A stretch of 64,000 nucleotides of DNA. Origin: a bacterium. GTDB taxonomy: Bacteria; Patescibacteriota; Minisyncoccia; Phycocordibacterales; UBA2100. The position numbers and the translations under genes were made by a program. The notes under the pieces are model-generated. The model was not told the origin of the DNA. It did no database searches and worked only from the letters and a program-made list of their open reading frames with translations. The DNA lies in contig RFQR01000006.1 in NCBI GenBank assembly GCA_009924895.1, positions 1,800 through 65,799 of the forward strand, in the 5' to 3' direction. Each line of letters opens with the position of its first letter. The first letter of the stretch is position 1. Positions 2,812-64,000 of the stretch are shown piece after piece.

Positions 2812-2827
2812 GCTTTGCATCTATCAG

Positions 2828-5247: not shown

Positions 5248-5433
5248 CTACGAACGTTTGCTGCGTTTGCTGCGGCGTCGACCCTGCTTCCGGCGGGCCA
5301 TTCGGCTCTTATTGTTTCGAACAAGTCGGACACCCTGCGCAATCGCCGCCGTTACAAAATATGGACCCGTCTGTGATACACCGACCATTACACTTGGATA
5401 AAACCCCCCTTTTAGATTCTTACGGGTCGCCAT
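5248..5433 (-). CDS. Small arginine/lysine-rich protein, possibly DNA-binding or condensing.
   Basis: 61 aa with a C-terminal RRKQGRRRSKRSKRS tail. It sits in tandem just upstream of PCNA. It competes with the featureless + strand ORF 5208..5477. Confidence 0.25.
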   Translation of the reverse strand: MATRKNLKGGFYPSVMVGVSQTGPYFVTAAIAQGVRLVRNNKSRMARRKQGRRRSKRSKRS

Positions 5434-5473
5434 ACCGTTTGCTTAAAAGGGTGTTAGATTTCTATTATACAGA

Positions 5474-40400: not shown

Positions 40401-41394
40401 GAACTCGACAGCGACGTTTGATGTGTCATGGGATATGGCAAAAAAGAATGGCACTACGTATAAAATGAATACGGCAGTGAAAGAGTTTTCCTTCTTAAAT
40501 CGGTGGTTCATCTTCAAGCGAAAGCGCCAGGAGACGGTGGTAATAACGGAAGTAGCACAAAAGGAGGTGACTCCTATACAATCAAATCTAGGAAGAATGG
40601 GTGCGGCGAGGGCCAGGGCAAGTGCCGTGGCAAAGGCGGCAAATACAATACAGGGGCAGGCGCCAGAAAAGTCACAGGGGCAGACGCCAGAAACAAATGA
40701 TATGCCCGCTTCAAGGACGGTTGGTGTCGCCCCAGGCCCTGCCACACCCCCCGCAAAGAGCTATACGATAGGCGAAGTCTTCCAGTTCTATTCCGATGCT
40801 CCTACTGCAAAAGATATTCTTGGAATAGAGGATAAAGGTGCCGCTCGCTGGCTATCGCCTTCTGCTCCCTTTCCTATCAAAGATGGCGACGTGCAATATC
40901 CATCCATGGAACATTATATGGGGGGTATGCGCGTAAAACTTGCCACAAATAAGCCTGAACTTGCAGAGAGTATGTTTAGTCGAGAAGGAACTATACATCA
41001 ACGCTTTCTGAATGATCGCCTTGGTATGACAAACGGTGGAACAAAACAGCTGACCGAAGAACAGGACCATGATATAATGAATGCAGAACTCGCCGCCGTG
41101 AAAGCGGCAATGGGGGTTCTCTCCCTGAAACGACACCGCGCTACAGTGGATGAAGCTACGTGGGCCACTGTAAAAGACAAAGTGATAGAGGATGCATTAA
41201 AACAACGGTGGACATTGGACAAGCGCTTTCGCAAAATCGTTGAGACTGCGCGTAACCAAGGAAAGTATCTCTTATATTATAGCCCTGGGGCTACGACAAA
41301 CTTGGGTGGAAGACGTGATAAAGACACGGGCCACATCGATGGGGAAAATAGGATTGGAAAGGCGATTATGAAACTTGCGGGGTATCCTGAATAA
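37462..41394 (+). CDS. Trifunctional mRNA capping enzyme (TTM RNA triphosphatase, guanylyltransferase, cap N7-methyltransferase) with an additional C-terminal NADAR/YbiA-like domain.
   Basis: EYELEATFG (triphosphatase), KADGLR (KxDG GTase lysine), VLDVACGVAGDLHNW (SAM motif I). C-terminal FQFYSDAP...WLSPSAPF...YPSMEHYMGGMRVKLA matches the DUF1768/NADAR signature. Confidence 0.9.
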   Translation: MELFSAEAENIKKKVEEWITHPEYELEATFGATGEVDSTTFLAVAQRLRAKGYASLPQEDRLTVITPEHVRFTITSLGVIQAYCKDDTMTGKPYTVMIKDRATADAQIDLEDYDTRIKVRRERDMAQTDASVKKLLETWAQQRKAFRMIRRWSFHSDGIRIDMSIVRATAKLRSGEFRWQRAFRDQDVMMNAPNYEIEVELEHLPGDTADIAMKRLIRGIGEVLRGIQKNTVLIRKETRKKVLAAYRELTGSDLFRGPALRTLRKENFVKERTAKTPNIRDGYNVTDKADGLRCMGFVDAKGDLYLIDMGMNVYRTGLRNLALRLSLVDGEWVTQTKDDPPKPMQQFLVFDILYMTDKRNVSQFPFEAGATLLVEGEPPPIAPPPEDSRHYQLKSWITTWNKDEGPKVMTPGLTPTTKLQVAAKEYFFAKAGNDSIFRMAARVLAAARPYYTDGLIFTPNALPLPERPAATFWEQFKWKPAEDNTIDFLVVTEKQTGSKTQDKVIAGIKPGPSAETVNYKTLRLYVGSNTENARDIILNRRDMPKRDRTPYGAKGKKEYKPVIFTPKEFPDPMAAICRLPIQTDPDTGEQYIMTEDTEEPIQDKTIVEMAYDPAQPPGWRWKPLRVRMDKTERLQRGTLSRTLNSEGVAEDAWNSIHDPVTASMIKTGADQPTDEEMAAIRRDSSGSARKYFDREEPVIDEALVEGMKKFHGRYIRGEILYRAGLSGGKTLMDVACGVAGDLHNWMRAGVDFVLGIDYAAKNIMDSHDSAYTRYMNLAIERGGLDSIPPMVFAIADSTKPLVDGTAGNNEQEKDILRSVFGKVKPAGSVPAYVEEVGASKLKMGADCITCMFAIHYFFETPDKLNGFLENLSQTLKVGGYFIGCCFDGQKVFDILREVPKGKSKTGMEGDTVLWEITKQYDAEDIPEGSEAIGLGVDVNFISIGMPHREYLVPFRLLEDKMRLIGCDLLTTDELKKLGLVNSTATFDVSWDMAKKNGTTYKMNTAVKEFSFLNRWFIFKRKRQETVVITEVAQKEVTPIQSNLGRMGAARARASAVAKAANTIQGQAPEKSQGQTPETNDMPASRTVGVAPGPATPPAKSYTIGEVFQFYSDAPTAKDILGIEDKGAARWLSPSAPFPIKDGDVQYPSMEHYMGGMRVKLATNKPELAESMFSREGTIHQRFLNDRLGMTNGGTKQLTEEQDHDIMNAELAAVKAAMGVLSLKRHRATVDEATWATVKDKVIEDALKQRWTLDKRFRKIVETARNQGKYLLYYSPGATTNLGGRRDKDTGHIDGENRIGKAIMKLAGYPE

Positions 41395-41782: not shown

Positions 41783-42619
41783 ATGCCACATCCTTGGCAA
41801 GAGTTGTCTATTGTGAATAAACATCCGCGCGATGATTTTATCCAGTTTGATGAACCTACGCATGTATATACAGTCAATGGGAGTTCCAAAGGAGTGATTT
41901 CGTGCACGAAGTTTCTTCATGAGTTCTTTCCTCACTTTGATGCAAAGGCGGTGATTGCAAAAATGATGGCTTCGCCAAAATGGCCTCAAAATAAATATTA
42001 TGGAAAGACGGCAGAACAAATTCAAAAAGAGTGGAATGACAATGGTGCTGCTGCAAGTGGAGCCGGCACAGCCATGCATTTGGCCATTGAACAGTTTCTT
42101 CACGGACATCCTGAGTTGATTGAACCGGGTGTTCTTCAAACTCCTGAGTGGCAGTATTTCACGAATTTCTGGAAAGATGCAAAAGAGGATTTAGTCCCCT
42201 ATAGAAGTGAGTGGGAAGTATGGAGCGAGGAATATAAACTTGCGGGTTCGATTGACATGGTGTTTTATCGTAAATCAGACGACTCCTATGTGATATATGA
42301 CTGGAAACGCTCCAAAGAAATAAAGAAAGAGAATAGTTTTGGAAATGGGTTTGGCCCCGTGAGTCATTTACCGGATTGCAACTATTGGCATTATACGTTG
42401 CAACTGAATGTGTATCGCTGGTTTTTAGAGACCTACTATGGTCTGAAAATCAGTGATATGTATATTATGATCTTTCACCCGGACAATGACGACTATAAGC
42501 GCTATAAACTAAATCGACTAGAGGAAGAAGTTCTGGAGATGCTGGCTGCCCGCTTAAGGGCTGTGCGGGAAGGGCGAGGGGTTGTAACATATGACAGGCG
42601 CGGGTCTAAGGCTTTCTAA
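41783..42619 (+). CDS. PD-(D/E)xK nuclease of the RecB/Cas4/lambda-exo (YqaJ-like) family.
   Basis: GTAMHLAIEQF, GSIDMVF...VIYDWKRSK (D...DxK), QLNVYRWFLE (QxxxY). Confidence 0.55.
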   Translation: MPHPWQELSIVNKHPRDDFIQFDEPTHVYTVNGSSKGVISCTKFLHEFFPHFDAKAVIAKMMASPKWPQNKYYGKTAEQIQKEWNDNGAAASGAGTAMHLAIEQFLHGHPELIEPGVLQTPEWQYFTNFWKDAKEDLVPYRSEWEVWSEEYKLAGSIDMVFYRKSDDSYVIYDWKRSKEIKKENSFGNGFGPVSHLPDCNYWHYTLQLNVYRWFLETYYGLKISDMYIMIFHPDNDDYKRYKLNRLEEEVLEMLAARLRAVREGRGVVTYDRRGSKAF

Positions 42620-45600
42620 ACCGCAGAAGAGAATCGGCTTTTTCATATATTTGTTTCAATCCTCGTGGCATATCGTCTCGAGTCAAAAACTGAGGTAGTT
42701 CGGGTGATAATAAAAGAAGGGCCGGTCCTTCTTCTGTGATTATAAATACGGGAACGCCAGGCGCGCTTGGTCGAATCGGTTTAAATGCCCTGTATTTTGG
42801 CGGATCTGAACGTATATCGATTTGTATGACGGGCATCGATATTTCATGTAGTATTCTGGCCAGGGTTTTATCATCCAGTTCTTTTGTATCAGGCCCTATT
42901 CCAAGCCCAGCAGATGTCATACCTATGGGCGCCAATAAAGTATCAAATGTCCCTCTTTTTAACCGAAGAGCTCCTGTTTTGGGATCCGGCTCCCCTCCCT
43001 GTAGAAAGTTCTCAAGCGTTGGAGGAAGTTTTGTAGACTCGTCTTGGGGGGCGAGAGGCGTGGCCGTCGCTATACGGGACATTTCTTCATAGAACTTCGG
43101 CACCTCCTCTTTTGTCGTTGCCCAATCCAGTCGTAACAGTTCATACCATGCAGCAGACTTCTCTGGATAAATGCGCTGATTCCCTTCAATCGTAACGGGC
43201 TTATCCAGGGTCGCTAATCGGCTCACATCTTGTTCCAACAGTTGCCGCCGTTTTTCCGCATAGCGCAATAGTTCTTCTATCAAACGAGCTAAAAGAATCT
43301 CTGGCGCTGATACGGCCTTTTCCTGCCCCCCCACGTGTGTTTCTTTTGGCACATGTAGAAGACATTTTCCCTTCTCTTCACGCCAAGCACATCGACCCCC
43401 GCACGCCTCTTTATTCTTGAAGTGACAGTCTACACGTAATAGGGATGTTTCATGTGACCGCTTTTTATCCTCCTCTGTAAAATCGGTTGTAATCCAGCTC
43501 TGAACTGTTTTCCATAAATGTATGGATAATGCCTTTCTCTTTTCATGCATGGGTAGTTTATGAGAGAAAATAATGCTTTTCAGCAGTTCTCTAAAGTCGC
43601 CACCATCCTCTTTGGCCGCTAACCAGTTTGAAAATCGTATACGCAGATGCTCAAATACTTCCTGAAATTCTATTTCATCCATTCGAGCCTTTTCACCAGG
43701 AACTTCTATAGATTCCTCTTTAAAGGATATGTCGTGATTTATTTTCCATTCCATCATTCCTACCGTAACAGACTCTAGTTTATTCTCTGTCATCAGCTTC
43801 TCCACAACATCCGGCTTCGTGGGTCCTACAGGAACGTACAGCCCATTTCGCAGTTGAATCGCCTCAATCTCTCCACTTTGCTGCCCTTTGACAATTCTTC
43901 GCGGGACATAGCCCTTATAAAGAGCAAAGTGTGGTTCTATGAACATTTTGTAAAACTGGAGGACTTGTTGTAGGGATGCGGGTTTAAACGCCGGATCATC
44001 CCAGTCTAGGAATAGATTCCCTTTTATAAAAAGCCTACCGTCGTCTACCACAGGTAATGCAATATATCCCTCCTGTGTTTTAAACTTATATACAAGTGCT
44101 CCTAAATGATTATATGCATCTCGTATGATTCCGACCATGGAAACACTGAGCTCTTTTATGAAAATGCTGTTTGAAATACTTGCAGGAATCATTGCCATTG
44201 GATGTATTTTACTTTGGGATGTATATGCCGCACGACCATTTGAGCTGCATTGATTCATATATTCTTGCAGGCGTTGTGTAACAATATCGGGCCAGACAGA
44301 TGCGTCAGTCATTTGAAATATAAGCGTAAAAATATCCATACCTCGTTGTTCGACGGAACGATTATCTACATAAAAGATTGGTTCCCAAATTCCTGACCAA
44401 TGATGCATGAGAAACGCCACATTATTTTGCGCCATAAGTTCTGCATTATACCCATAGGGTGGGCAGCGAACAGAGACTTTTCCAGATTTCAATATATCTA
44501 GCACAATAAATGTTGTTCCTACACCAAACGCTTTTCGTGTAATCAGATTTGATTGTGAAAGTGCTAATGCAAAATGTCTGAATTCCTTTTTCGTTTTATC
44601 GGATTTCAGCCATTCCTCAAAAGAATAATAACTCATATACGCACGCACAATGGCCTCCCTATTGGATTCATCCACATCTACTTGAAGTTCATCAGATGCC
44701 CATTTCATGATAGCTGAATCTTTGGGTCGTCGCAGGGTCGAGTTTGCAGGATCATAGAACTCCAACACCATATTTCCGTAGTTAAGACCTAAAAATATGC
44801 GCGGGGTTATTTTACTAAGTAGAAATGATTTCATTTGGTCTGCATTATTCAACATATAATAGGGCGCAACTGCGGCTAAAAAACTGTCATTCTGGAATCT
44901 GGCACGATTTTCTACTCCAATCCGTAAAAATCCTGTCCCACCCTCCTTTATTTTTTGAGGATTAAATGTGCGACTCACGAGTTGCGTAGAATCCTGGTTA
45001 AAATATGTATCAAATATGGGTGGAAGTAATCCTACTTGGGCTTCTCCTCTCGCCTTTCCCACAAGTAAACTAACATCGAGGGGCATTTTTTCCGCACCTA
45101 CAATGTATTTTTTTGTCACGCCTGCGAGTGTTACATAATAATCCAAAATAGGTATACCTGCATCATCTCTGGATGTCGCGATTTGTTCCTCCTCCTCGTC
45201 ACTATCCTCGAGGGTAACACTTTTTGTTTTTGTTTTGGGTTTCTCTCCCCATTCCCTATATCTATCAAACGCGGGATCCGTAAACTGAATAGGAGATTCT
45301 TCCATAAAACAACATGGGAGATAGAATCCTTCTGGATGCGTTTTGGCTTTTAAAAATTTTATATAGAGATGTCGTCGACCTGTATTCGGTTTCATCTCTC
45401 TTTCTAAGATCGTTTCACCCGCTTTAGGGTAACGGCGTGATTGAATCACTTTTCCTTTACAAAAAGGACATTCTCCAGGTCGTTTGGGAGCCCCCTTTGG
45501 TCGACGCATAACAGATGATTCCAGATCCGATTCTCGAATCATAATTTCATCTTTTGTGCAGAAATAGCGGCAACAGATATAATAGTTTTGATTTTGTGCT

Positions 45601-48254
45601 GTTGTTCCGTATCGAAGGACTGTATAATAATCATTTTCTATCACGCCCTCTGGCTTTGATTCTTCTCCAGGCTCTATAGGAAATATTTGAAAATATACGG
45701 GATCATTCGCGTATTCTTCTTGCATTCGCTGGAACTGGGCTTCTGAAAGAACCGCTGGTTGACGACCATGCGTTGGTTGGCATTGACTCACATAGCGCTT
45801 TAAAGAGGGATGTGATTTCGTATAATCAAATAGGCGACGGTCGGCCTCATGCAACTTATTTAGGAAAAAGTTTGCAATACCCGTTTCAGGTGTAGAGGAT
45901 TCATCCTCTGATTCAACGGGAGCCGTCACTTTTACTGGTTGTATATGCGCCCCTTGTAAATCTTCTTTAGGAGTGGCAGTAGCTTTTGCAATTTCTCGTT
46001 TCAGTTCCTCTACAGGGGCGGCTAGAGGATCTGCGCGAACAGGGGCAGGAGTATTGTCCTGTATAAGTTCCTCTGAATAGGGTGTTCCTTGTTGGGTAGC
46101 CACTTGTTGAGCAGCCTTCGCTTCCTCTTCTGTCATTTGGTCGTCCTGTTCATATGCAAAAAAATCAAGATAATCGGGTAACTCTTCAGGGACATTTTCA
46201 TCTGCATTTGCGGGTGCATCTGCTGGGACTTCTGGTGCATTTGCGGGTGCATTTGCTGGGACTTCTGGTGTTTCTGCTGGGACTTCTGGGACTTCTGGTG
46301 TTTCTGGTGCATCTGGTGCATCTGGTGCATCTGCAACACTTTCCTCATCCTCTGATTCTACTCCCTCCGCGCGTTGCAGCTCTTTCACAACACTTGCTCC
46401 CACCTTCAGTTCCTCTGCATCAATACCAATCATCAATGACATAGCTGTAATAATCCGCTGTAGATTTTCAAGGGAGTTTACATTATACAAATGGAATGTG
46501 TAAAAGGGGTGTTGGGCAAAAATGGCAATATCAATCCCAGAGTTATTTTCATGCATATATTCGCTAGATGCTGGATTCACAATAGCGACTGCACCCTGTG
46601 CCTGAAACTTTTTCGCCACTTGTTTCCGTGCTTCTGCCATATCAATTTGGAATTCATCTGCAACAAGATCTACCAAGTTCGTCGCAATCCCTTCCCCACG
46701 AAGAACTTTACGATGAATCACCTGTGTTATAAATGTTTGTATCCGATCCTCTGTGGCGAAGTTACTAACAACTTTAAAACGTAACATAAGAATCGGCTTT
46801 TCTCCAGGGAGGGGCGCAATTTCCTGAAAGAAAGATGTAAAAATGGGAAGGCGATCTCGTAACATTTTTGTAGTAATAGGAGGATTCTCCTTTTTCAAAC
46901 GAATACCTAATACAAATGTCGCCTTCTTAATATCAGGAATCGTATCAATATGCGATATTCCTTTTAGACTTTCTACAATCGTTTCGCCGAGAGATGGTAG
47001 ATCGGTGCGTGGGTCCAGCTTTTTAAACCCCCTAGGAGGCTCTATAATATAATCTGCCGTGCCCTCATCAAATAAACGCAATGTCCCATAAATAGGAGCT
47101 ACATTCGTAAGTCCATTCCGTATCAATATTTTGGCAAATACATAATCTTTCTCAGGCGTAGGGTTTCGTTCTTGTGACCATGCAATCAATAGTTTCGGAT
47201 CCTGAATATCAGGTATTTTCCCATCTGCCATATATATTTTAGTAATCCCAGCTCCCTCCACAGGTAGAAGGCGCATAAATGGACGGCGCTCATTCACTGC
47301 CGCCTCATAAAAGGGCGTCTCTATTCCTGCAATATTCTTCTTTTTTGCCCACGTAAGTTGTAAATATTTAACACCTGCAAGTGTTAGTTCAATACTCAAG
47401 GGAGTATCTTCATCTAATATAGACTGTAAGCGCATCAACAGTTGTTGTCGGCGTGAAAAAAGAATCGCCAGTCGTTCCGCCCGCGCCTTTTGTTCCGCAG
47501 TAGGCTCTTCCGTTCCCACTGGAAGATACGGAAAAAACGGATATAAGCGACCATTCCAATCTTTTTCACTGGGTGGTTTTGGCCCTGGAATCTGTTTCAA
47601 TAAACTCCTATATAAATATAGATGAAACTCAGGTATCACTTTTCCTCCACAATACGCACCCTTTAAAAAAGCGTCTTCAATCGTCACCCGCTCCCTGTTC
47701 ACAATACTTATAAGTCGTCGCTCTCCATTTGATTCAACAAATCTAGGGTCCGTTTTGGCACCTGTCACAAGTTCAAAAGGTAGGGCATTATAAAAGAGTT
47801 CTTTCGTGCTTAGAATACTGGGTTGATTCCATGTATAATCCACACTCACAGTCCCTTTGTTTTTATAGGGATTGCCTCCTGGTGTAGGTCCATGTGCACA
47901 CAAATAAGTAAACTCGGGTATTGCATTCGGATCTTTTTCCAAATGTATATACAGCGCCGTCTTAATATCCTGTAGAGTCATGAAGGGGAACATGTTTTTC
48001 AACACGATTTCTTTGGGCTCTACCGTGGGCTCTGTATGAAGCATAACAGTGAGCTCGCCGGACGGCATAGAGTCTCTAAAGCTTCCAAGTGTAGATGGAT
48101 ATAATACTTTTCTGATGAAATCAGGAATATCTTGTAGACCTGTGGCCATCTCTAACGTCACATACCAAAGTTTATTCCGTAGAATACGGAATGAACCGTG
48201 ATGTGTCAATACACTATCCTTTTGAAAAATCAGTACCATCTTTTGTGGCATCAT
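42606..48254 (-). CDS. 1882-aa protein, a candidate early transcription factor large subunit (vaccinia A7L / VETF-L-like), with an internal acidic Pro-rich repeat.
   Basis: KTHPEGFYLPCCFMEESPIQ resembles the A7L KYCIPCCFLHDQS motif. Long uninterrupted ORF. (PDA/PEV/PAN) repeats at ~46180-46340. Confidence 0.45.
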   Translation of the reverse strand: MMPQKMVLIFQKDSVLTHHGSFRILRNKLWYVTLEMATGLQDIPDFIRKVLYPSTLGSFRDSMPSGELTVMLHTEPTVEPKEIVLKNMFPFMTLQDIKTALYIHLEKDPNAIPEFTYLCAHGPTPGGNPYKNKGTVSVDYTWNQPSILSTKELFYNALPFELVTGAKTDPRFVESNGERRLISIVNRERVTIEDAFLKGAYCGGKVIPEFHLYLYRSLLKQIPGPKPPSEKDWNGRLYPFFPYLPVGTEEPTAEQKARAERLAILFSRRQQLLMRLQSILDEDTPLSIELTLAGVKYLQLTWAKKKNIAGIETPFYEAAVNERRPFMRLLPVEGAGITKIYMADGKIPDIQDPKLLIAWSQERNPTPEKDYVFAKILIRNGLTNVAPIYGTLRLFDEGTADYIIEPPRGFKKLDPRTDLPSLGETIVESLKGISHIDTIPDIKKATFVLGIRLKKENPPITTKMLRDRLPIFTSFFQEIAPLPGEKPILMLRFKVVSNFATEDRIQTFITQVIHRKVLRGEGIATNLVDLVADEFQIDMAEARKQVAKKFQAQGAVAIVNPASSEYMHENNSGIDIAIFAQHPFYTFHLYNVNSLENLQRIITAMSLMIGIDAEELKVGASVVKELQRAEGVESEDEESVADAPDAPDAPETPEVPEVPAETPEVPANAPANAPEVPADAPANADENVPEELPDYLDFFAYEQDDQMTEEEAKAAQQVATQQGTPYSEELIQDNTPAPVRADPLAAPVEELKREIAKATATPKEDLQGAHIQPVKVTAPVESEDESSTPETGIANFFLNKLHEADRRLFDYTKSHPSLKRYVSQCQPTHGRQPAVLSEAQFQRMQEEYANDPVYFQIFPIEPGEESKPEGVIENDYYTVLRYGTTAQNQNYYICCRYFCTKDEIMIRESDLESSVMRRPKGAPKRPGECPFCKGKVIQSRRYPKAGETILEREMKPNTGRRHLYIKFLKAKTHPEGFYLPCCFMEESPIQFTDPAFDRYREWGEKPKTKTKSVTLEDSDEEEEQIATSRDDAGIPILDYYVTLAGVTKKYIVGAEKMPLDVSLLVGKARGEAQVGLLPPIFDTYFNQDSTQLVSRTFNPQKIKEGGTGFLRIGVENRARFQNDSFLAAVAPYYMLNNADQMKSFLLSKITPRIFLGLNYGNMVLEFYDPANSTLRRPKDSAIMKWASDELQVDVDESNREAIVRAYMSYYSFEEWLKSDKTKKEFRHFALALSQSNLITRKAFGVGTTFIVLDILKSGKVSVRCPPYGYNAELMAQNNVAFLMHHWSGIWEPIFYVDNRSVEQRGMDIFTLIFQMTDASVWPDIVTQRLQEYMNQCSSNGRAAYTSQSKIHPMAMIPASISNSIFIKELSVSMVGIIRDAYNHLGALVYKFKTQEGYIALPVVDDGRLFIKGNLFLDWDDPAFKPASLQQVLQFYKMFIEPHFALYKGYVPRRIVKGQQSGEIEAIQLRNGLYVPVGPTKPDVVEKLMTENKLESVTVGMMEWKINHDISFKEESIEVPGEKARMDEIEFQEVFEHLRIRFSNWLAAKEDGGDFRELLKSIIFSHKLPMHEKRKALSIHLWKTVQSWITTDFTEEDKKRSHETSLLRVDCHFKNKEACGGRCAWREEKGKCLLHVPKETHVGGQEKAVSAPEILLARLIEELLRYAEKRRQLLEQDVSRLATLDKPVTIEGNQRIYPEKSAAWYELLRLDWATTKEEVPKFYEEMSRIATATPLAPQDESTKLPPTLENFLQGGEPDPKTGALRLKRGTFDTLLAPIGMTSAGLGIGPDTKELDDKTLARILHEISMPVIQIDIRSDPPKYRAFKPIRPSAPGVPVFIITEEGPALLLLSPELPQFLTRDDMPRGLKQIYEKADSLLRFRKP

Positions 48255-52482: not shown

Positions 52483-53010
52483 ATGACTAGGGATATGGCA
52501 TTTTGGGAAGATATTGAATGGAAAGCATGGTTACGAGAGTATGTCACTTGGAAGAATGAGCAGATTCCACGACATGCAGCTATTCGTCATTTTTGTAATG
52601 AACTTTGTATATTTCTTCATTTCCATGGCTATTTCTTACGTGTCAATCGCAATACACTGAAATCACATATAGCGACTGGATTATATAACAGTCGAACATC
52701 GTGTAATATAACACACTGGATATTCGGAGAACAAGATGCGGACTATCAGCATAAAGTATATTTTGCACACGTGATTGATTCTACGGAATGGAACAAATTC
52801 TGGAACACATCCGCAAAATGGTGCGATCTAGATGCGAATGTTCTATATGGTCTTGAACGTCAATATTGTATTGAACATTATGTTTGGACACAGCTAGATT
52901 TAGGTATATCAAAACATACACGAACGGTGAATGAATTATTAGGCTTAGATGATGATATAATATCAGAAAATGAAAATCATGACACGATATTCCAAGATAT
53001 GAATGATTAA
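52483..53010 (+). CDS. Hypothetical His/Trp-rich protein.
   Basis: ORF 52438..53010 trimmed to the Met at 52483. Confidence 0.4.
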   Translation: MTRDMAFWEDIEWKAWLREYVTWKNEQIPRHAAIRHFCNELCIFLHFHGYFLRVNRNTLKSHIATGLYNSRTSCNITHWIFGEQDADYQHKVYFAHVIDSTEWNKFWNTSAKWCDLDANVLYGLERQYCIEHYVWTQLDLGISKHTRTVNELLGLDDDIISENENHDTIFQDMND

Positions 53011-54233
53011 CTGCTAGACCACTTTGAATTATTAAAGGGTCGCATAAATAAAGAATCCACTTCTTTTTCAAATTCGTGCACTTTAGTATCGAATTTCAAG
53101 GCGTCGGGTGTTTTAGGTATTTTGCCATTTTTCATTAACATTTCTTCATCATGGGCGGATTGAGATGGTTTCTTGCCATAGCAATTCACTCCATATAACA
53201 TATCGGGATTATCAAAATATCCTCCATTGAGTCCAACCGTCCCACATGCGCCGTGATCATCCGCCGGGCCGTTTTGAATTTTATCATATGTTTCTTGTTG
53301 AGTTGGATATACGGCCATTTGCCCCTTCACCCAACCATAGTTGCACCAATCCGCGCCTTTACTCCAAGCATTTTTGACTTGTTCATATGTGGCTAGTTCT
53401 GCTCCAAGAGATTTACATAAAGGCTCCGCATCATAATAGGTGAACTTGTTGTGAGAGACATTATATACTTCATTACTACCTGTCGGAAGTACTTTCTCTA
53501 CAATATTATTCATCTGTATTTCCTGCTTGGGAGTTATGGTTTGAGGAGGTATAGGTGCTTGTGTTATAGGGGGTGTCGTATCAACAACAGGTAAAGGTGG
53601 TTTAGATATACCAAGGGACATTTTAATAGATCTCGAAAGATATTCATATCCGTGTGATATTTGTTTATTAAAAATGGCAAAGACCACTAAAAATACTGTA
53701 AAAAATGCAATAAAAATCCAGAGGGGGGATATCCAAGAACTGGAGATTTTTCCACTATTGTTTGCAGCCATATTGAACATATTCGATCCACTCGCAGATC
53801 CACTCGCAGATCCACTTGCAGATCCACTTGCAGATCCACTCGCATTTTTAGAGTTTGAGTTTCCAAAAATATTAAACATGCTGTTATTTGCAGCATTATT
53901 TTTCGTATTCGCCCCACTTTCTTTTTTTGTGTTTACCATGTTTGTATTTGTTCGAGGCGGGGATGCATTTCCAAACGGTAATAAACTATTAAAAGATGAA
54001 GTCTTATTTGCAGCAGGTATTACAGAACTTATTGCAGAACTCGCTGCATTTACTGCAGTGGTTGCCGCGGAACTCGCTGCATTTACTGCAGTGGTTGCCG
54101 CAGAACTGGCTGCACTTGCAAGTGCATTTACTGCCCCTGTAGTTACTCCAAATGCGCTTGTTAAAGCTCCCGCAACGGGATTTTGTCCTATAGGATTCGA
54201 AGCAGTCGCGTTCATCTCTACCGTGTTGTGCAT
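53007..54233 (-). CDS. Membrane protein with a C-terminal Link (hyaluronan-binding, Xlink) module.
   Basis: A/S-rich N-terminus, (SGSA)n, TM (aa 168-188), Pro-rich stalk, then KFTYYDAEPLCKSLGAELATYEQVKNAWSKGADWCNYGWVKGQMAVYPTQ...GACG...CYG, which fits the Link module (TSG-6/CD44 type, 4 Cys). Confidence 0.5.
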   Translation of the reverse strand: MHNTVEMNATASNPIGQNPVAGALTSAFGVTTGAVNALASAASSAATTAVNAASSAATTAVNAASSAISSVIPAANKTSSFNSLLPFGNASPPRTNTNMVNTKKESGANTKNNAANNSMFNIFGNSNSKNASGSASGSASGSASGSASGSNMFNMAANNSGKISSSWISPLWIFIAFFTVFLVVFAIFNKQISHGYEYLSRSIKMSLGISKPPLPVVDTTPPITQAPIPPQTITPKQEIQMNNIVEKVLPTGSNEVYNVSHNKFTYYDAEPLCKSLGAELATYEQVKNAWSKGADWCNYGWVKGQMAVYPTQQETYDKIQNGPADDHGACGTVGLNGGYFDNPDMLYGVNCYGKKPSQSAHDEEMLMKNGKIPKTPDALKFDTKVHEFEKEVDSLFMRPFNNSKWSSS

Positions 54234-56898: not shown

Positions 56899-57128
56899 GT
56901 TTCTATCACCCCATTACGTAAAAAATAAAAGAATAAAATACGGGCTTCTATAAATGCCCATATCCGGCAACCAAGGACCCCGCGATACAGGACCCTCGAT
57001 AGAAGAATCGATTCGTGATGCGGAAACTCGCACACTTGATTTTCCCGCCACCGAACGAGCAAACTATGTGCGTGCAATGGCACATCGTATCCAAGAACTT
57101 CAAGCATCAAACCGGACACTAGAAGATA

Positions 57129-58499
57129 TCAAGTCCCTTCTACCCGAGTTTGTGCGCGAATATCCTCATTTATTTGAAACACTGACGGCGCCTGACTACG
57201 ATCCTTCGACTCTTCAGGTAATGTTGACAATGCTGGAACGGATGGGCAATGGGAGTCTGAATCATCATCAAGCAACGGTAATTGTGGGGAAGCGTTTAGC
57301 ACAGAAGTATATACGACCGGATGGATCTTCATAGGCTGTAGCATAGTAGATGGAATATGAAATCGTTGACACCACGCAAGACTTGTCTGGAAATCAATAT
57401 GCATTTGATGCGCATACCACGCGGTAGGGTCGTTCGCATAGCATTCAGCAAGTGTAATAGCCCTTACTTGTTCTTTACGAGTGTAATCAACATGTTCCAG
57501 AATATATGTATACTCCTTTTCATCTAACCATACATTTTGAAGCGGGTATAGCCCCGCTGTATGTTTTTCTTGAAACTCTAACAACACTTTCAACACGTTG
57601 TTCGTCAATCCTACAAAATCATGGCCTAAAAAATAGCGTTCCGAGTTACATGGGCGAGACAAACTTGGCTTATATAATGTCCATTTCTTAAAACATCTCC
57701 CCAATATCGCTATAAGAGCCATGGTAGATTCGGAAAATATATCAAAGAACTTAAGCACAAAAGACCCCCCTATATGAAGACAACGTATACCAATCGTTGC
57801 CGAGCAAACTAATAGATTATATACGCGCTGTTCTTGAACATCATAATCAATACTAAAATCGAACCCACCATCGGCCGTATATAAATGCACTCCAGGCGCA
57901 GTGGCTTCTATAAACGAGTTTTGATTCAGTATCTCATACACATTTCCTGTTCCATCCGCACCATAGTGAAGTCTTACTTCACGATGTTGATGTAGAAAAT
58001 GAGAAGCACGACGCCACCCTGGGACATGCGGATCTGTCGGCTTTAATGTCATAGCCGTCGCATTCTGTAATATTTTCTTATTGCGCAATACAGTGTCTGT
58101 AATGGCCTGGATAAACCCACCCGGTCCTTCTGCTACATGGGCCGTACGAATCTTAGGAGCCTGCTTGGGAAGAGATTCATAAAAACGAAGAACGTCTAAC
58201 ATTTCTATCATTTTGAAATATGAGCGACTGAGAGGTTTTAGAACCGCAATAGAGGGATGAAAATGCCCCGTTTCATGTGTATATACCATTTCATAGGGGT
58301 TTACCATTTTTTTCACAAGTTCCCATCGATGTTTTGATTCTAAAAAAGAAATCCGCTGTTTGGCGGTTTGAATGTCTGCCGGTTGCGCATCTTTCCATGG
58401 ACCATATGAGATTTGCTCAGGAATAGGACATAGAATACGATCCTGCCACTGTGGAGATAACCAAGGTGGCTTTATCGGGTGTGCGTGACTCATACTCAT
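57129..58499 (-). CDS. RrmJ/FtsJ-like methyltransferase, a candidate mRNA cap 2'-O-methyltransferase (CMTR1-like).
   Basis: AHVAEGPGGFIQAI (SAM motif), LYTADGGFD, a downstream K and E consistent with the K-D-K-E tetrad. Confidence 0.5.
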   Translation of the reverse strand: MSMSHAHPIKPPWLSPQWQDRILCPIPEQISYGPWKDAQPADIQTAKQRISFLESKHRWELVKKMVNPYEMVYTHETGHFHPSIAVLKPLSRSYFKMIEMLDVLRFYESLPKQAPKIRTAHVAEGPGGFIQAITDTVLRNKKILQNATAMTLKPTDPHVPGWRRASHFLHQHREVRLHYGADGTGNVYEILNQNSFIEATAPGVHLYTADGGFDFSIDYDVQEQRVYNLLVCSATIGIRCLHIGGSFVLKFFDIFSESTMALIAILGRCFKKWTLYKPSLSRPCNSERYFLGHDFVGLTNNVLKVLLEFQEKHTAGLYPLQNVWLDEKEYTYILEHVDYTRKEQVRAITLAECYANDPTAWYAHQMHIDFQTSLAWCQRFHIPSTMLQPMKIHPVVYTSVLNASPQLPLLDDDSDSHCPSVPALSTLPEESKDRSQAPSVFQINEDIRAQTRVEGT

Positions 58500-58523
58500 A
58501 GAATGTAATAAAGCCTTATACCC

Positions 58524-61500
58524 TTACTCTTCTGCATCTACAATCGTAATCTCCATATCAGGTTCATCCATCAGAACGGCTCTTTGTGGCATAGCAATAT
58601 TCATGCGCAGACGAGCGGTCGAGCACATGTCATCCGTGTCTTCATGTAACTCTTGATTAATCTGTTCCTGCGTAGGTCCCTCATCCTCGTCCTCAAATCC
58701 TTCCAATGGTGTCATACCCTCCTGGAGACGCATATACGCCGACTCATCGAATAGCACCTCAAAGAATCCTGTGCCTCCACGAATCGGTTGCCCCATCATA
58801 ATATTCGCTGAAATACCTGTCACTGGATCAATTTCTCCAAAGAGGGCGGCGCGTAACAGAATCTTTTCCGTTTCCTCAAAGGATGCTTTCGCTAAAGGCC
58901 CAATATCCATTTTGTTAATACCATATCGGTCGACCGACATAAGGCGTCCTGCACGCGTCATTACATCACACAGGAGTCCCAGATGCCTAGAGTTTACACC
59001 CGCCTCTTCAAAGAGAGTCGTAATCTCCTGAATAAGTGTAGACCTCGTCGCCTCAATACCCAGATGTTCGTATACGTCGTGCACATGACTACTTGTAAGC
59101 TTCAACCCATCCACATAGGGGTGATTCATAACCGCAAGAAAGTTGGTGCCATCCGTATCTAACACATATTGCGTTACCTGCTTATAGACGCGCTCTTCTG
59201 TATTATATTCCAGCGTGTCCTTGTCCTGGCGAAAGTTAACAGCCTTGATTCCAGGAACGCCGCGAATCACAATCCCTGTTAGCAATCTATTTTGTAGCTT
59301 CTTGAGGGCCAGTAAATCGTCCATACCCGAGTTCATCTCAGGAGGAATGCGCACACGCATAATCAGGCGCTGCGAGTTATAATCACTATAGACCAAGTTA
59401 ATCGCTGTCCCGAACTTCTGTCGGAGCACAAAGGCTATATCATCCATACTAATATTTTTCATGAACATGCGCTCCCTATCAAGCTCTAAGCGGAGCATGA
59501 GCCGGCTCCAAATGGCCTTTTGTTCCTCCCCCGCCTCTCCAAACTTGGGCACAGGTGCCGCATCAGGTTCCATTTCCGCCTCAAACGCTTTATAGAACTT
59601 AATGAGGTCACGATCCTCCTCAAGCACCGACGTGGAATCGTCCGGGTCATAATAGATTGCCGCTTTGACTGTAATATCTTTTAGAAGCGTAAGCTCCAAA
59701 TCTTGCGCGACTTTTCTAGCCTTCTCTTTGGAATCACGAATCTCAGGCTTCAAGCTTATGGTGAGAGAAATCGCCTTGGGATTCTGCGTAACCTTGAGCA
59801 ACTCCTTCAACCGTGGCACACCTCGTGTGACATTCGACTTGGCAGCTACACCAGCTAAATGAAACGTATTGAGCGTCATCTGTGTCGATGGCTCGCCAAT
59901 ACTCTGTGCCGCGATGATACCCACCTGCTCCCCAGGCTGCGCCCACCCCTGCCAGTTCTTCACAACAATCATCTCACAGACTGTATCAAATGCCTTGCGT
60001 GTGAGGCGCTCCTTCAGAACCACCTTGTGAGGGGCCAAATAGAAGCGAAGAAGGGCCGCCCAGAGTTTATGATACGACTGTGTCCTCTGAATCAGCTTTT
60101 CAATACCCTGTAGAACATAGAGGGGTGTCAAATCCGTCGCCGCCTTTTTATCCAGGCGAAAACTCGTTATGACATTTATTAAGACGCGGTCAATATTCAC
60201 AGATGCAAACAGCCCTACATCCTGTCTCGACCGTTGCACTCCCTCCACGAGCATCTTGCGATCGTCTAAAACCTGCTCCGCAAAAGCTTTCAGAACCGCG
60301 GCATCCTCCCCACGAAGAGTGCCCTCTGCCAAGACACTTGTCATATCCGCGACAGTCATTCCATACTCCCGTAGAATCTCTTCGTCACTTAGTTTCCCAA
60401 GACCCAGGCTCGCAGACTCAATCTTGGTCGCATTGATTCCATCCTCCCCATATTTGAATTGTGCAATATTCATACGACTGTCTCGGACGGAACCATCGTA
60501 TTGGACGGTTAAATCTTCCATGGCCTTGACGAGCTGTCGCTGGATATAGCCTGTGTCGGCGGTATCATAGACTTGAAGGCCATTCGCCAAACCAAATGTG
60601 AATGTTCCAGGCACTGTCAAATCATATAACTTAGGATACTTTTCTAGACCAACAGGTGTAATCTCCACAATTTCATCTAGAACTACATCCTTCTGGAATG
60701 GGAAGTTACGATGCTCAGAAGAAGCCTTTAGAGCCAGTAGTTTTGTATTCTTCGCATCATCCATGAGACGTATCTTATCTGCGAATCGTTTCGCCCATTG
60801 AGCCCTGATCGATAGGCGGTAGCTTGGTTGAATAACCTCCGTGCCAAGATTATTGCTTGTAAGTTGGGACTCAAACACCTTTGCAAAGATACCAAGACGA
60901 CTCAATAGCATATTGATGCCCTCAATCAAATCCTTGGAAGCAGAACCGACTTCCACCGAGTTATCCGACACAGAACCATCTCCAGAGAAATAGCCATCAA
61001 GAAGTGCCACTATGAAATGTTCAGGCGCTGCAAAGGACTCCGCAGGAACACGCTTATTGGATGCTCCATGCCCAACCAAGAGGTCTAGGAACTTGGCTAA
61101 GACAGTGGAATAGCCACGCACGGTAGTAGTCACACCCCCTATTGCGTTGAGCTTTACATATTCGGTAGTCTTTACACGCTGACTCTCAAACCAGTCATGA
61201 ACGAACTGACAGATTGCCGAATTGTTGTTCGTAATAGCTATATATCCACTCGTCACATCCACATTACCCTCCGCAAGGAACAGGCCCAGGAAACGGCCAT
61301 TCTCTTCACTCATGGTGAACTCATCGGGAATGCGCGCGTGGTCACGGTTGGTAGTAAAGGGATAGACATATCCACGAAGTATATTATCCGTCTTAGAACG
61401 TGTGAGTGTTCGCACAAAGCGCCCTTTATTCTCGTAAGGAAGCGTGAAGGCCTTGCCATTGTTTTCATCCCACCAGCCGCCAGGAATGTGCTCGCGATCC

Positions 61501-64000
61501 AGCATTGCCTCCGCCACGGCCTCTTGAGCTACCAGGAAATCAGTTCCATAGAGATAGACATCCTTTGATAGATACTTGGCAAGAGAAATGGACTGACAAA
61601 CGACTGGAGGTGCTACTAGTTGCATGGTGACTGGCATACAATGCCCAGGACGCACCTCAAGTGTATCCATCTTCTCAAATGTCTTTGTTTCGCTGCGCCA
61701 AATCAAGAGGGACTTGGATTCAGGGACAATCACGGAACGACCACCCAATGTCTTCACTTCATAGAGCTGTTTCCCAGGGTCATGGCGAGTGACTGCCGCT
61801 ACAGAACCCCATGATACAGATCCCTCTGCTGTCACTGTAGGAATGAACGTATTCGATGATAGTTGTAGCATTTCAAGTTCGTTATCCTCAGGGAAATGCT
61901 CAATATCGCCCATCTTTGCACCCCTCATATGCGCATCAATCCAGTCCCCAATTGCTACACACTTTGTCAGACCCTCTTCCATCACCACAATCTTCGTATC
62001 ACCTGTCACAGACTTTACAGCTGTATCAATCAGACCCTCACGACCTGACATGGCATGAAAGAAGAACTCCTGTGGCGTCAGACCCTGTATAAAGCTGCTC
62101 TCCACAAAGCCCCTCGCCTCAGCACCATCATCATACTTCTTGAAATGTGGCAAAGTCCTATCGGAGAACCCATACGGAATACGCTTTCCTTCAGGCGCCT
62201 GTTGTCCCACACAAGCCATCATCTGCGAAATATTAATGGTGCTACCCTTGGAACCCGCTCGCACCATTGCCACTAGACGGTTCTCGTCCGAAAGCGCTCC
62301 CAAGCCAATCTTGCCCGACTCCTCCGTCGCCTTATTCAGCTCTGTAAACACTTTATCTTCAAACTCCTGTTGATTTGTCTTTCCCGTATTGTTATCAAAG
62401 AGATCTAAATGAATCTGGAGGAGAATATTCTCAATCGCCGCCTTACGCTTCTTCACCACTTCCTCCATCTGTTTCCGAGTATCTTCATCGGCAATCAAAT
62501 CCGAAATACCCACGGAGAACCCATTATACACCAGAAACTGCTCCACCGTATTTTGCATACTGTCAATAAAGTTCACAGTGTCTTTGGGGCCATGGTCGCG
62601 ATATGTCACGTGCACAACACCCTTTGAAGGCTTTGAGAATATATCCTTATCAAAGATTCCCTGCTCCACCACACCTTCCCGAATTTTCACATAGTTTTCC
62701 TGGCTCTTATTATCCTTATAGAGACCATTCCCCATTTCCAGATTAATAGGCGGCATCAACTGCGTAAGAACTTGTTGACCCGTCCAACGAGACGACTTTC
62801 CCTCTACAACTTTCCCCCCCTTTGGCACCACACCTTCAAAACGCTTATTCCACATCATCATGTTCATAAACTCTCGACGATTGAAATCCACTTGTGGACG
62901 TGTCATTCGATAGGAACCCACCAACGAGTCTTGCACAATACCAATCAACGGCTTTGCGTGACGAGGTGTCACAATCTGATGAGGAACCGCCGCAATCTCT
63001 GCCAGCTCCGTAGAAGCCTCGTAGGACTGGGGGATATGCGCATTCATCTCATCGCCGTCAAAATCCGCATTATAGGGTGCTGTTACGGACACATTCAGGC
63101 GGAAAGTATTATACGGCAATACCTTGACCCGGTGGCCCATCATAGACATCCTGTGGAGAGTAGGTTGCCGGTTGAAGAGGATGATATCTCCGTCGTCCAA
63201 ATGCCTATTCACCACATCACCCAGCTTCAGCACAATCTCTCTCGTATTCACATGCTTCAATGAAATCATGCGGCCATCGGGGCGCACGATAGTCTTTGCG
63301 CCAGGGTGTTTATCCGCCCCATTTTGGATTAGTTTATACATCTGCTCTCGATTATAGGGCGTTACCTTCTCAGGCACCGTCAGATTCAGGGCAATCTTCA
63401 GCGGAACGCCAATCTCCGCAATAGACAAGTTCGGATCCGGCGTAATCACAGAACGCGCTGAAAACTCCACACGCTTCCCCTGAATATTGTAGCGAATACG
63501 CCCCTCCTTTGAACCCAGGCGCTGCTGCACAGACTTCAAGGGGCGTCCTGAACGCTGGGCAGAAGGAGCCACGCCAGGAATCTGATTGTCCACAAGAGTC
63601 GCAATATGATATTGTAGAACCGTGTGCTCATCTTCAATCAAGTTCTTCGCGGCATTATTATTAATCTTATCATTCAGACGCTGGTTCGTCGAGATGATTT
63701 CAAAGAGCTTGTGTGTCAAATCATCTTCCGAGCGCTGATTGTTGTCTTGGATGACAGAGGGACGCACTTGAGGAGGAGGAATAGGAAGCACGGAACAAAT
63801 CATCCAATCCGGGCGACACCAATATCGATTGAGGCCCATGAAATCCACATCCTCATCCGTCATACGACGAAAGAGGCGGAGCACATACTCCACCTCGAGA
63901 ACCTGACTCACCATTTCGGGTTTCTCCTGACCGGGATTTGTCAAACTGCTTGTCCATTCGGCAGTGATACGTGCAATCCCATCACGTGTATAACGGTCCG
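58524..64000 (-). CDS. RPB1: DNA-directed RNA polymerase largest subunit (RPB1), N-terminally truncated by the window edge, interrupted by an intein.
   Basis: RPDWMI...VLPIPPPQVRPS, NADFDGDEMN (catalytic), GREGLIDTAVK | intein | TADTGYIQRQLVKAMEDLTVQYDGSVRDS. The minus-strand frame is still open at nt 64000. Confidence 0.95.
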   Translation of the reverse strand, partial: DRYTRDGIARITAEWTSSLTNPGQEKPEMVSQVLEVEYVLRLFRRMTDEDVDFMGLNRYWCRPDWMICSVLPIPPPQVRPSVIQDNNQRSEDDLTHKLFEIISTNQRLNDKINNNAAKNLIEDEHTVLQYHIATLVDNQIPGVAPSAQRSGRPLKSVQQRLGSKEGRIRYNIQGKRVEFSARSVITPDPNLSIAEIGVPLKIALNLTVPEKVTPYNREQMYKLIQNGADKHPGAKTIVRPDGRMISLKHVNTREIVLKLGDVVNRHLDDGDIILFNRQPTLHRMSMMGHRVKVLPYNTFRLNVSVTAPYNADFDGDEMNAHIPQSYEASTELAEIAAVPHQIVTPRHAKPLIGIVQDSLVGSYRMTRPQVDFNRREFMNMMMWNKRFEGVVPKGGKVVEGKSSRWTGQQVLTQLMPPINLEMGNGLYKDNKSQENYVKIREGVVEQGIFDKDIFSKPSKGVVHVTYRDHGPKDTVNFIDSMQNTVEQFLVYNGFSVGISDLIADEDTRKQMEEVVKKRKAAIENILLQIHLDLFDNNTGKTNQQEFEDKVFTELNKATEESGKIGLGALSDENRLVAMVRAGSKGSTINISQMMACVGQQAPEGKRIPYGFSDRTLPHFKKYDDGAEARGFVESSFIQGLTPQEFFFHAMSGREGLIDTAVKSVTGDTKIVVMEEGLTKCVAIGDWIDAHMRGAKMGDIEHFPEDNELEMLQLSSNTFIPTVTAEGSVSWGSVAAVTRHDPGKQLYEVKTLGGRSVIVPESKSLLIWRSETKTFEKMDTLEVRPGHCMPVTMQLVAPPVVCQSISLAKYLSKDVYLYGTDFLVAQEAVAEAMLDREHIPGGWWDENNGKAFTLPYENKGRFVRTLTRSKTDNILRGYVYPFTTNRDHARIPDEFTMSEENGRFLGLFLAEGNVDVTSGYIAITNNNSAICQFVHDWFESQRVKTTEYVKLNAIGGVTTTVRGYSTVLAKFLDLLVGHGASNKRVPAESFAAPEHFIVALLDGYFSGDGSVSDNSVEVGSASKDLIEGINMLLSRLGIFAKVFESQLTSNNLGTEVIQPSYRLSIRAQWAKRFADKIRLMDDAKNTKLLALKASSEHRNFPFQKDVVLDEIVEITPVGLEKYPKLYDLTVPGTFTFGLANGLQVYDTADTGYIQRQLVKAMEDLTVQYDGSVRDSRMNIAQFKYGEDGINATKIESASLGLGKLSDEEILREYGMTVADMTSVLAEGTLRGEDAAVLKAFAEQVLDDRKMLVEGVQRSRQDVGLFASVNIDRVLINVITSFRLDKKAATDLTPLYVLQGIEKLIQRTQSYHKLWAALLRFYLAPHKVVLKERLTRKAFDTVCEMIVVKNWQGWAQPGEQVGIIAAQSIGEPSTQMTLNTFHLAGVAAKSNVTRGVPRLKELLKVTQNPKAISLTISLKPEIRDSKEKARKVAQDLELTLLKDITVKAAIYYDPDDSTSVLEEDRDLIKFYKAFEAEMEPDAAPVPKFGEAGEEQKAIWSRLMLRLELDRERMFMKNISMDDIAFVLRQKFGTAINLVYSDYNSQRLIMRVRIPPEMNSGMDDLLALKKLQNRLLTGIVIRGVPGIKAVNFRQDKDTLEYNTEERVYKQVTQYVLDTDGTNFLAVMNHPYVDGLKLTSSHVHDVYEHLGIEATRSTLIQEITTLFEEAGVNSRHLGLLCDVMTRAGRLMSVDRYGINKMDIGPLAKASFEETEKILLRAALFGEIDPVTGISANIMMGQPIRGGTGFFEVLFDESAYMRLQEGMTPLEGFEDEDEGPTQEQINQELHEDTDDMCSTARLRMNIAMPQRAVLMDEPDMEITIVDAEE
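60564..62012 (-). mobile_element. 483-aa intein with a LAGLIDADG homing-endonuclease domain inserted in RPB1.
   Basis: The N-terminal block SVTGDTKIVVMEEGLTKCVAIGDWI aligns with the VMA1 intein CFAKGTNVLMADGSIECIENI. LAGLIDADG motifs LGLFLAEGN and IVALLDGYFSGDGS. The C-terminal block FGLANGLQVYD|T aligns with VMA1 FLLANQVVVHN|C. Confidence 0.75.

Follow-up and report, generated by a model that had tools for sequence, protein, structure and literature searches.

We analyzed a 64,000-nucleotide (nt) stretch of DNA (GenBank assembly GCA_009924895.1, contig RFQR01000006.1, positions 1,800 to 65,799; hereafter the window, numbered from its first letter), in which the gene for the RNA polymerase subunit RPB1 carries a long insert that is very probably a functional, recently mobile intein in a giant-virus RPB1. 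We assign the window to a giant virus of the Nucleocytoviricota because of its gene content (topoisomerase II, the major capsid protein of nucleocytoplasmic large DNA viruses (NCLDV), an mRNA capping enzyme, SNF2/RING helicases and an FtsJ methyltransferase) and the GVMAG and IMG-VR names of the contigs of its relatives. The sole long open reading frame (ORF) across the interval in question runs on the minus strand (58524..63944), in a frame that stays open to the window edge at 64000, and its product contains RPB1 domains 1-7 in a Pfam scan. The original prediction, made from the letters of this stretch, had called the RPB1 ORF about 480 amino acids (aa) too long, and its coordinates proved exact: the insert occupies residues 645-1127 of the translation (62012..60564, minus strand), i.e. 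483 codons in frame and without stops, ending in Y1126 and D1127.

With a slash marking the splice points, the translation reads ...GREGLIDTAVK/SVTGDTKIVVM... at the upstream junction and ...GLANGLQVYD/TADTGYIQRQLVKA at the downstream junction, the codons being AAG for Lys(-1), TCT for Ser1, TAT for Tyr482, GAT for Asp483 and ACC for Thr(+1). The N-extein (62013..64000, minus strand) comprises domains 1-4 (Pfam RNA_pol_Rpb1_1 to _4) and the N-terminal half of the bridge helix, and ends in ...FFFHAMSGREGLIDTAVK; the N-terminus of RPB1 lies beyond the end of the window. The C-extein (58524..60563, minus strand) begins with Thr(+1) (ACC, 60561-60563), continues through the rest of the bridge helix (its C-terminal half), the trigger loop (GEPSTQMTLNTFHLAGV, without interruption) and domains 5-7, and reaches a stop codon. 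The extein edges are ...FHAMSGREGLIDTAVK on the N-side and TADTGYIQRQLVKAMEDL... on the C-side. Ligation would produce the peptide LIDTAVKTADTGY, and the fused, intein-less coding site derived from the window DNA is GGTCTGATTGATACAGCTGTAAAG/ACCGCCGACACAGGCTATATCCAG. Boundaries shifted by one residue (TAVDTADTGY or TAVKSADTGY, with an intein starting in Lys or Val) were rejected on reading the sequence, since they do not restore the conserved extein and leave no nucleophile at position 1.

The sequence context places the insertion in the bridge helix and not in the trigger loop, since the HAMxGREG...TA(x)xGY segment corresponds to the RNA polymerase bridge helix. By motif, this segment matches residues H806-G813 and A822-Y826 of M. 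jannaschii (PMC2988716), where the numbering of the A' subunit is described as intein-free (PMC2776397, PMC2988716). The enzyme's catalytic core includes the bridge helix (PMC2776397, PMC2988716). Of the 'bridge/trigger region' originally named as the insertion site, the bridge helix stands, while the trigger loop does not, since GEPSTQMTLNTFHLAGV is contiguous downstream. The intein of the M. jannaschii A' subunit lies near the active-site region rather than in the bridge helix.

A query made of the spliced extein, with 330 aa from either side of the junction, gave 3275 RPB1 proteins at E ≤ 1e-60. The best 120 matches listed of these 3275 (up to 90% identity) are all contiguous at the site, reading GLIDTAVKTADTGYIQ and GLIDTAVKTA(D, E, T or A)TGY. 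The window exteins are intact, contain no stops and are 82-90% identical to intein-less orthologues (89% for the allele P0128). One intein-less locus, L003 (ENA MEHR18-2 scaffold_415), is syntenic with the window and shares the gene order RPB1, FtsJ, ..., Xlink. Here and in a second locus, L002, the window's codons are matched one for one over 30 positions to either side of the junction: on the C-side all 30 residues are the same in both loci, in flanking DNA that is about 80% identical, and the 30 N-side residues show no amino-acid difference in L002 and a few in L003. Because these flanks align codon for codon, the window carries a clean 1449-nt insertion relative to both loci. The placement of the insert between the GREGLIDTAVK and TA(E/D)TGY segments is thus confirmed by both the translation and the intein-less alleles.

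The RPB1 gene of L003 (8664-10000, 84% identical) is itself broken between domains 2 and 3 by about 1.3 kb, at a position where the window is uninterrupted, and this sequence contains an ORF with a faint GIY-YIG match. It is likely to be a group I intron with a homing endonuclease, and interruptions of this kind probably explain many of the ~1000-aa RPB1 fragments in databases.

Architecture and fold of the insert

The insert gave a Pfam LAGLIDADG_3 match at E = 5.8e-19, and its best NCBIfam match was the model for intein-containing archaeal RpoA'' (E = 3e-45). The closest solved protein in a sequence search was the intein endonuclease PI-PkoII. A profile alignment of the window intein with 21 relatives (A1) matched PI-PkoII at E = 3.9e-20, and also TFIIB mini-inteins and the Tli and Pho VMA inteins, in profile-to-structure alignments spanning blocks A-B and F-G. 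The AlphaFold2 model built on A1 (predicted local distance difference test, pLDDT, 92.7; predicted template modelling score, pTM, 0.92) found intein-endonucleases as all of its top Foldseek matches in the Protein Data Bank (PDB), led by 2cw7 (8.5e-26) and followed by TliVMA, PhoVMA, PI-PfuI and PI-SceI; mini-inteins matched the Hint part and I-DmoI the LAGLIDADG core. Like the window element, PI-PkoII (Thermococcus kodakarensis, 2cw7), TliVMA/PhoVMA, PI-PfuI and PI-SceI consist of a Hint domain with an inserted LAGLIDADG enzyme, and blocks A, B, F and G align. However, the host proteins differ, Foldseek identity is 12-16%, and PI-PkoII has a His at the position of Lys100 of the window intein. 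The PI-SceI junction is His-Asn/Cys. A scan of window positions 57000-64000 at E ≤ 0.1 revealed no Rfam family, introns included, and removal of the insert at the RNA level was rejected on this ground.

By sequence and modelled fold, the insert is an intein with a Hint splicing domain and a nested LAGLIDADG endonuclease, as the original prediction had proposed; the comparison it suggested, with inteins and RPB1 orthologues, gave intein profile hits and the same insertion site, at which relatives are contiguous without an insert. The intein extends from Ser1 to Asp483 (483 aa, 60564..62012, on the minus strand like all of its parts). Its N-terminal splicing (Hint) half, delimited by profile-to-PDB alignments, covers aa 1-135 (61608..62012) and starts with the canonical block A that had been recognised earlier, SVTGDTKIVVM with Ser1 (61980-62012), followed by an invariant TRHD motif (61773-61799) and by block B, GGRSVIVPESKSLLIW (61698-61745), with Pro97 at B:7 (61722-61724) and Lys100 at B:10 (61713-61715), where a His is expected. 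The nested homing-endonuclease region (aa 136-437, 60702..61607; Pfam and Foldseek) has a linker/DNA-recognition part and then the LAGLIDADG core. Both expected LAGLIDADG motifs are present with their acidic residues intact: motif 1, GRFLGLFLAEGNVD (aa 239-252, 61257-61298), includes GLFLAEG and the predicted catalytic Glu248 (61269-61271), and motif 2, FIVALLDGYFSGDGS (aa 333-347, 60972-61016), includes LLDGYFSGDG and the predicted catalytic Asp345 (60978-60980). The C-terminal splicing half (aa 438-483, 60564..60701) contains block F, KLYDLTVPGTFTF (60594-60632), and block G, GLANGLQVYD (60564-60593), with Tyr482 at G:6 and Asp483 at G:7.

Junction and helper residues across the family

The window intein has the nucleophiles of a class 1 intein, Ser1 (TCT) and Thr(+1) (ACC), both invariant in the family. 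It does not have the canonical Thr-x-x-His of block B, where it reads Pro97-Glu-Ser-Lys100, nor the canonical His-Asn of block G, where it ends in Tyr482-Asp483; the block F His (the 'HNF' His) is also replaced, by Phe471 in the window and by Leu in most family members. The Tyr-Asp preceding a +1 Thr had been read correctly from the start; the absence of the block B His was overlooked at that stage, when only the block G oddity was seen. We rejected a class 2 intein (Ala1), as Ser1 is present and invariant, and a class 3 intein (Trp-Cys-Thr, as defined in PMC4031507 and PMC7765530), as F:4 is the invariant Asp464 and not Cys.

With the window intein alone as query, we found 114 proteins, nearly all of them metagenomic RPB1 fragments. 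A scan of IMG/VR gave 484 loci encoding a relative, 80 of which were fetched and 72 of which could be parsed, and a hidden Markov model (HMM) search of 1.84 billion cluster representatives gave 555 clusters at E ≤ 1e-30 and 1390 at E ≤ 1e-10. Among the proteins found with the intein query, Asp ends the intein at 47 of 48 C-junctions (Asn at the other), Thr is next in all of them, and the penultimate position holds Arg, Val, Tyr, Lys or Ala, in no case His. All 72 parsed IMG/VR copies have Ser1, a terminal Asp (GAT in 61, GAC in 11), Thr(+1) and no stops, and Asp ends 177 of the 179 complete C-junctions in the best 138 new proteins from the HMM search. In block B, the family mostly reads T-E-S-K, which aligns onto T-S-G-H of PI-PkoII and onto T-R-S-H and T-G-S-H of TFIIB inteins. 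Lys occupies the His position in 82 of 94 sequences and in 65 of the 72 IMG/VR copies; the minority residues are Gln, His and Glu, and also Met and Asn. Asp464 at F:4 is kept, and within A1 Y463, D464 and T466 of block F (K-L-Y-D-L-T) are invariant, as are T75, R76, H77 and P79 of the T-R-H-(D)-P motif (residues 75-79).

Because they are conserved across hundreds of diverged, intact copies, we read these unusual residues as selected: the Asp terminus and the missing block B, block F and penultimate His are a trait of the family and not a sign of decay. The doubt initially raised about splicing at this junction was well placed as regards its oddity, but not as regards a one-off lesion, with Asp in 72 of 72 and 177 of 179 cases; the 'altered mechanism' suggested at the time was a fair idea drawn too narrowly, given that the block B and block F His are absent as well. 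The window element is an intein by its fold, context and nucleophiles, and departs from the T-x-x-H and H-N motifs as a member of a coherent lineage.

The family is apparently a large, undescribed clade of giant-virus RPB1 inteins. It includes Catovirus CTV1 ARF09014.1, in one of the clusters found with the window intein (P0009), which is 48% identical to the window intein and interrupts the same site (GLIDTAVK/S...RD/TAESGY). In the literature that we searched on inteins in RPB1, in the bridge helix or in Nucleocytoviricota, we found neither this family nor its catalytic oddities described, and the Asp terminus and missing block B His of giant-virus RPB1 inteins go unmentioned there. KOG0214 is, we presume, the second-largest subunit RPB2 and not RPB1. 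It is only under KOG0214 that a 2018 survey of eukaryotic and viral inteins places viral RNA polymerase inteins (PMC5784728).

Selection, probable homing and insertion sites

We compared the window intein with that of a locus called L001. The proportions of nonsynonymous and synonymous differences were pN = 0.17 and pS = 0.75, with a similar contrast in the N-splicing, endonuclease (0.17 vs. 0.76) and C-splicing parts; synonymous divergence (dS) is saturated for this pair, so that the contrast between pN and pS is meaningful and a value of omega is not. These figures argue strongly for purifying selection on the window intein. L001 (Logan SRR20314591_176223, 1840-3282) is remarkable in its own right: an intact 481-codon intein without stops, 76% identical in amino acids to the window intein and with a G+C (GC) content of 44.6%, occupies the same site inside a decayed RPB1 pseudogene. 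Stops number 14 over the 601 codons of the pseudogene's N-extein and 15 over the first 330 of its C-extein; its identity to the window extein is about 35%, and its GC content is 36-38%. The arrangement resembles homing into an RPB1 copy that is dead and possibly endogenised; it may also be an assembly chimera.

The family includes inteins of 480-494 aa with intact LAGLIDADG motifs, others of 288-371 aa with motif residues lost, and mini-inteins of 183-263 aa that have lost the endonuclease and kept every splicing block. We recognise in this size series the classic life cycle of a homing element.

The window intein and that of L004 (IMGVR_UViG_3300048670_000989) are 98.6% identical in nucleotide sequence (21 mismatches in 1449 nt), vs. 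about 85% in the RPB1 flanks, where a mismatch occurs every few codons. On the upstream side the tract of high identity extends 36 nt beyond the intein, and on the downstream side 20 nt. In another locus, L005, divergence from the window is about equal inside and outside the intein. The contrast seen with L004 is the footprint expected of recent homing and points to a transfer between two distinct viruses, which would imply that the endonuclease was working in the recent past and that the intein was splicing-competent in both recipients. The distribution of the intein among close RPB1 relatives is sporadic. From purifying selection, recent mobility, the family-wide junction residues and a location in an essential helix with intact exteins, we infer on evolutionary grounds that the window intein splices and is functional.

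The family occupies at least three sites in giant-virus RPB1: the bridge helix, trigger loop 'b' (TLN/TFH) and the archaeal-type trigger loop 'a' (TQM/TLN). The block B position varies with the site, being Lys in 96 of 123 copies in the bridge helix and in 40 of 47 at TLN/TFH, and His in 10 of 11 at the archaeal-type TQM/ site. The archaeal RpoA'' inteins (NF011491/PRK14898; Haloarculaceae MFT4922823.1, our P0110), which are the best curated match, are homologous to the window intein (27% identity), share its Ser1 and nested LAGLIDADG enzyme, and reside in an orthologue of RPB1. However, P0110 lies at the trigger-loop site GEPGTQM/S and keeps its block B His (T-K-S-H), whereas the window intein lies in the bridge helix; allelism with archaeal RNA polymerase inteins was rejected on account of this difference in site.

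Second inteins are also found. L004, L005 and L010 have a further RPB1 insertion of about 1.4 kb at the trigger loop, and the only one translated, in L004 (approximately 4647-6101), is a 486-aa intein (GEPSTQMTLN/SVDWDT...CIACKD/TFHLAG) that is 31% identical to the window intein (E 3e-58), with Ser1, T-K-G-K in block B and a final Asp before Thr. The window has no trigger-loop intein: GEPSTQMTLNTFHLAGV is contiguous, and the empty site lies near 59868. Among the representative proteins P0263-P0400, 67 RPB1 proteins carry two family inteins and 18 carry three, and in a few RPB1 proteins two sites are three residues apart (...TQM/intein/TLN/intein/TFH...).

Proposed splicing chemistry, alternatives and significance

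We propose that translation of RPB1 yields a precursor whose bridge helix is interrupted midway by 483 extra residues, and that the Hint domain would excise itself and join ...TAVK to TADTGY..., restoring the universally conserved helix. Ser1 would make an N-O acyl shift at the Lys(-1)-Ser1 bond and Thr(+1) would attack the ester (transesterification), both being standard class 1 nucleophiles. Asp483, in place of Asn, would then cyclise, resolving the branched intermediate and freeing the intein, and an O-N shift would restore ...TAVK-TADTGY.... Lys100, by stabilising the tetrahedral intermediate through its charge or a hydrogen bond, and strain at Lys(-1) would jointly replace the block B His; these two are the best candidates for what activates the scissile bond at the N-terminal junction. 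The LAGLIDADG enzyme is predicted to cut the intein-less RPB1 of co-infecting relatives at the GLIDTAVK/TADTGY coding site, and repair of the cut allele would copy the intein in (homing). We infer from sequence comparisons that splicing occurs, what Lys100 and Asp483 do chemically, and that the endonuclease is active.

We put forward only tentatively the idea that this clade splices by a distinct strategy, i.e. a Lys-assisted N-O shift at Lys(-1)/Ser1 followed by Asp cyclisation, with the usual set of helper residues replaced. The replacements in the bridge-helix and second trigger-loop clade are His to Lys in block B, His to Leu or Phe in block F, penultimate His to Arg, Val or Tyr, and Asn to Asp. 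Published work offers precedents. Asp, Gln or Glu termini can stand in for Asn by cyclisation, and the non-Asn termini that still cyclise include an Asp-ending intein, the one in the ribonucleotide reductase (RNR) of Chilo iridescent virus and the Pab and Mma Pol II inteins; about 5% of active inteins have no His at the penultimate position (G:6), nor is the block F His always required (PMC4031507). These known Asp- or Gln-terminal inteins are isolated cases that are otherwise canonical, whereas the window family combines a near-universal Asp with the loss of three helper His. A bulky -1 side chain can offset loss of the block B His (PMC6333167), and the -1 residue of the window intein is an invariant extein Lys. 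The Tko CDC21-1 intein and its orthologues resemble the window intein in their natural loss of the block B His and their bulky -1 residue (PMC4031507, PMC6333167). However, their compensating Lys58 lies outside the conserved motifs, whereas Lys100 is at B:10 itself, and the host proteins differ; no close relationship was detected between the window intein and Tko CDC21-1.

A number of points weigh against our interpretation. The Pfam Intein_splicing match (1e-6, 29.1 bits) falls below the gathering cut-off of 35.8 bits, a score that might be expected of a divergent splicing domain. Pro at B:7, instead of Thr, is a minority state (8 of 94), and the window copy could splice less well than the consensus. 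The anhydride intermediate, like splicing and DNA cleavage, is a prediction, and the role of Lys100 is assumed from its position. An intein lacking the block B His was until recently taken to be a pseudogene or to be compensated elsewhere (PMC4031507). Lastly, our reading covers the window, and a second, intein-free RPB1 copy may exist outside it.

It is unlikely, in our view, that the intein splices by something other than plain Asp cyclisation with Lys100 as the stand-in for the block B His. The invariant His77 (TRHD) or extein residues of the bridge helix might provide catalysis, the branched ester might be resolved by another route, or splicing might be conditional, for example on a low pH at which Asp is protonated, and so time the maturation of the polymerase. 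This would fit the invariance of T75, R76, H77 and P79 in A1 and the presence of the aligned R-H in relatives that have the block B His (PI-PkoII, TFIIB inteins and the archaeal RpoA'' P0110), and the occurrence of Gln, Glu, Met, Asn and His at the block B position argues against an indispensable role for Lys. Low pH is also reported to favour C-terminal cleavage, and 'other mechanisms are possible' for Asp, Glu or Gln termini (PMC4031507). On the other hand, no alternative catalytic residue is singled out by the sequence data, and the presence of Lys in about 80% of copies in two separate insertion-site lineages suggests that Lys is selected.

Nor do we think it probable that the intein is a fixed, vertically inherited passenger, which splices but has an inactive endonuclease and no longer homes. 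Bodo saltans virus (BsV) has inteins in its RNA polymerase subunit A and B genes, and these klosneuvirus inteins have been reported as fixed and without an active endonuclease (PMC5871332); many members of the window family, moreover, are mini-inteins or have decayed LAGLIDADG motifs. The BsV RPB1 (polr2a) intein shares its host gene with the window intein (it was compared by its published description), but the window copy has both motifs intact, with Glu248 and Asp345, and its endonuclease region is under purifying selection. The closest RPB1 relatives (the best 120 listed) are intein-less, and the high identity to L004 within sharp boundaries is a signature of recent transfer.

The idea of a dead, non-splicing intein, requiring that this RPB1 copy be non-functional or tolerate a 483-aa insert in its bridge helix, seems very improbable. 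It would account for the missing block B His, block F His, penultimate His and terminal Asn, for Pro at B:7 and for the sub-threshold Intein_splicing score, and the L001 intein does sit in a decayed RPB1 pseudogene. However, the same set of residues occurs in hundreds of diverged copies with intact ORFs, the signs of purifying selection are strong, and the window exteins are intact and 82-90% identical to their intein-less orthologues. An insert of 483 aa in the core catalytic bridge helix is in addition very unlikely to be tolerated (PMC2776397, PMC2988716). That the insert is a lineage-specific RPB1 domain or an intron-encoded ORF and no intein at all is barely credible: other insertions do occur in related RPB1 genes, such as the ~1.3 kb with a GIY-YIG ORF in L003, but this one has Hint and LAGLIDADG folds and motifs, is in frame without stops, gave no Rfam intron at E ≤ 0.1, and is missing from close relatives with exactly conserved junctions; we regard this idea as refuted by these results.

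Elsewhere in the window, a 408-aa ORF (53007-54233, minus strand) has an Xlink domain (extracellular link, hyaluronan-binding type; 1.6e-15) that is conserved in L003 and is unexpected in a giant virus since Xlink is mainly an animal extracellular-matrix domain. An 1882-aa ORF (42606-48254, minus strand) has no Pfam match at E ≤ 0.001; on the corresponding side of L003 a 1927-aa gene is cut off by the end of the locus. The mRNA capping enzyme ORF (37462-41394, plus strand) has guanylyltransferase and N7-methyltransferase domains and, at its C-terminus (aa 1199-1305), a weak, sub-threshold NADAR match (E 3.3e-4).

Reviews describe the block B His as the most conserved intein residue, with one functional group of natural exceptions, and treat Asp or Gln termini as rare (PMC4031507, PMC7765530). 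The family adds hundreds of natural, diverged and apparently functional inteins lacking three helper His and the Asn. Together with the His-keeping relatives at the TQM/ site (10 of 11), they form a comparative series for the residues that protein splicing truly requires, and cysteine-free, histidine-free inteins for use in protein engineering might be drawn from them. RPB1 serves as a standard marker in phylogenies of the Nucleocytoviricota, and unrecognised inteins split or lengthen its gene calls; many database entries of this intein family are fragments or are labelled 'hypothetical'. The window locus is one member of a widespread family, for which the bridge helix and trigger loop of giant-virus RNA polymerase appear to be hot spots of actively homing elements, with transfers visible between viruses that are about 15% apart in the nucleotide sequence of their RPB1 flanks. 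This supports the view that homing endonucleases play a part when co-infecting giant viruses compete (PMC5871332). If the splicing strategy proposed here is correct, it may be sensitive to pH or other conditions and in that way could gate the maturation of the viral transcription machinery.

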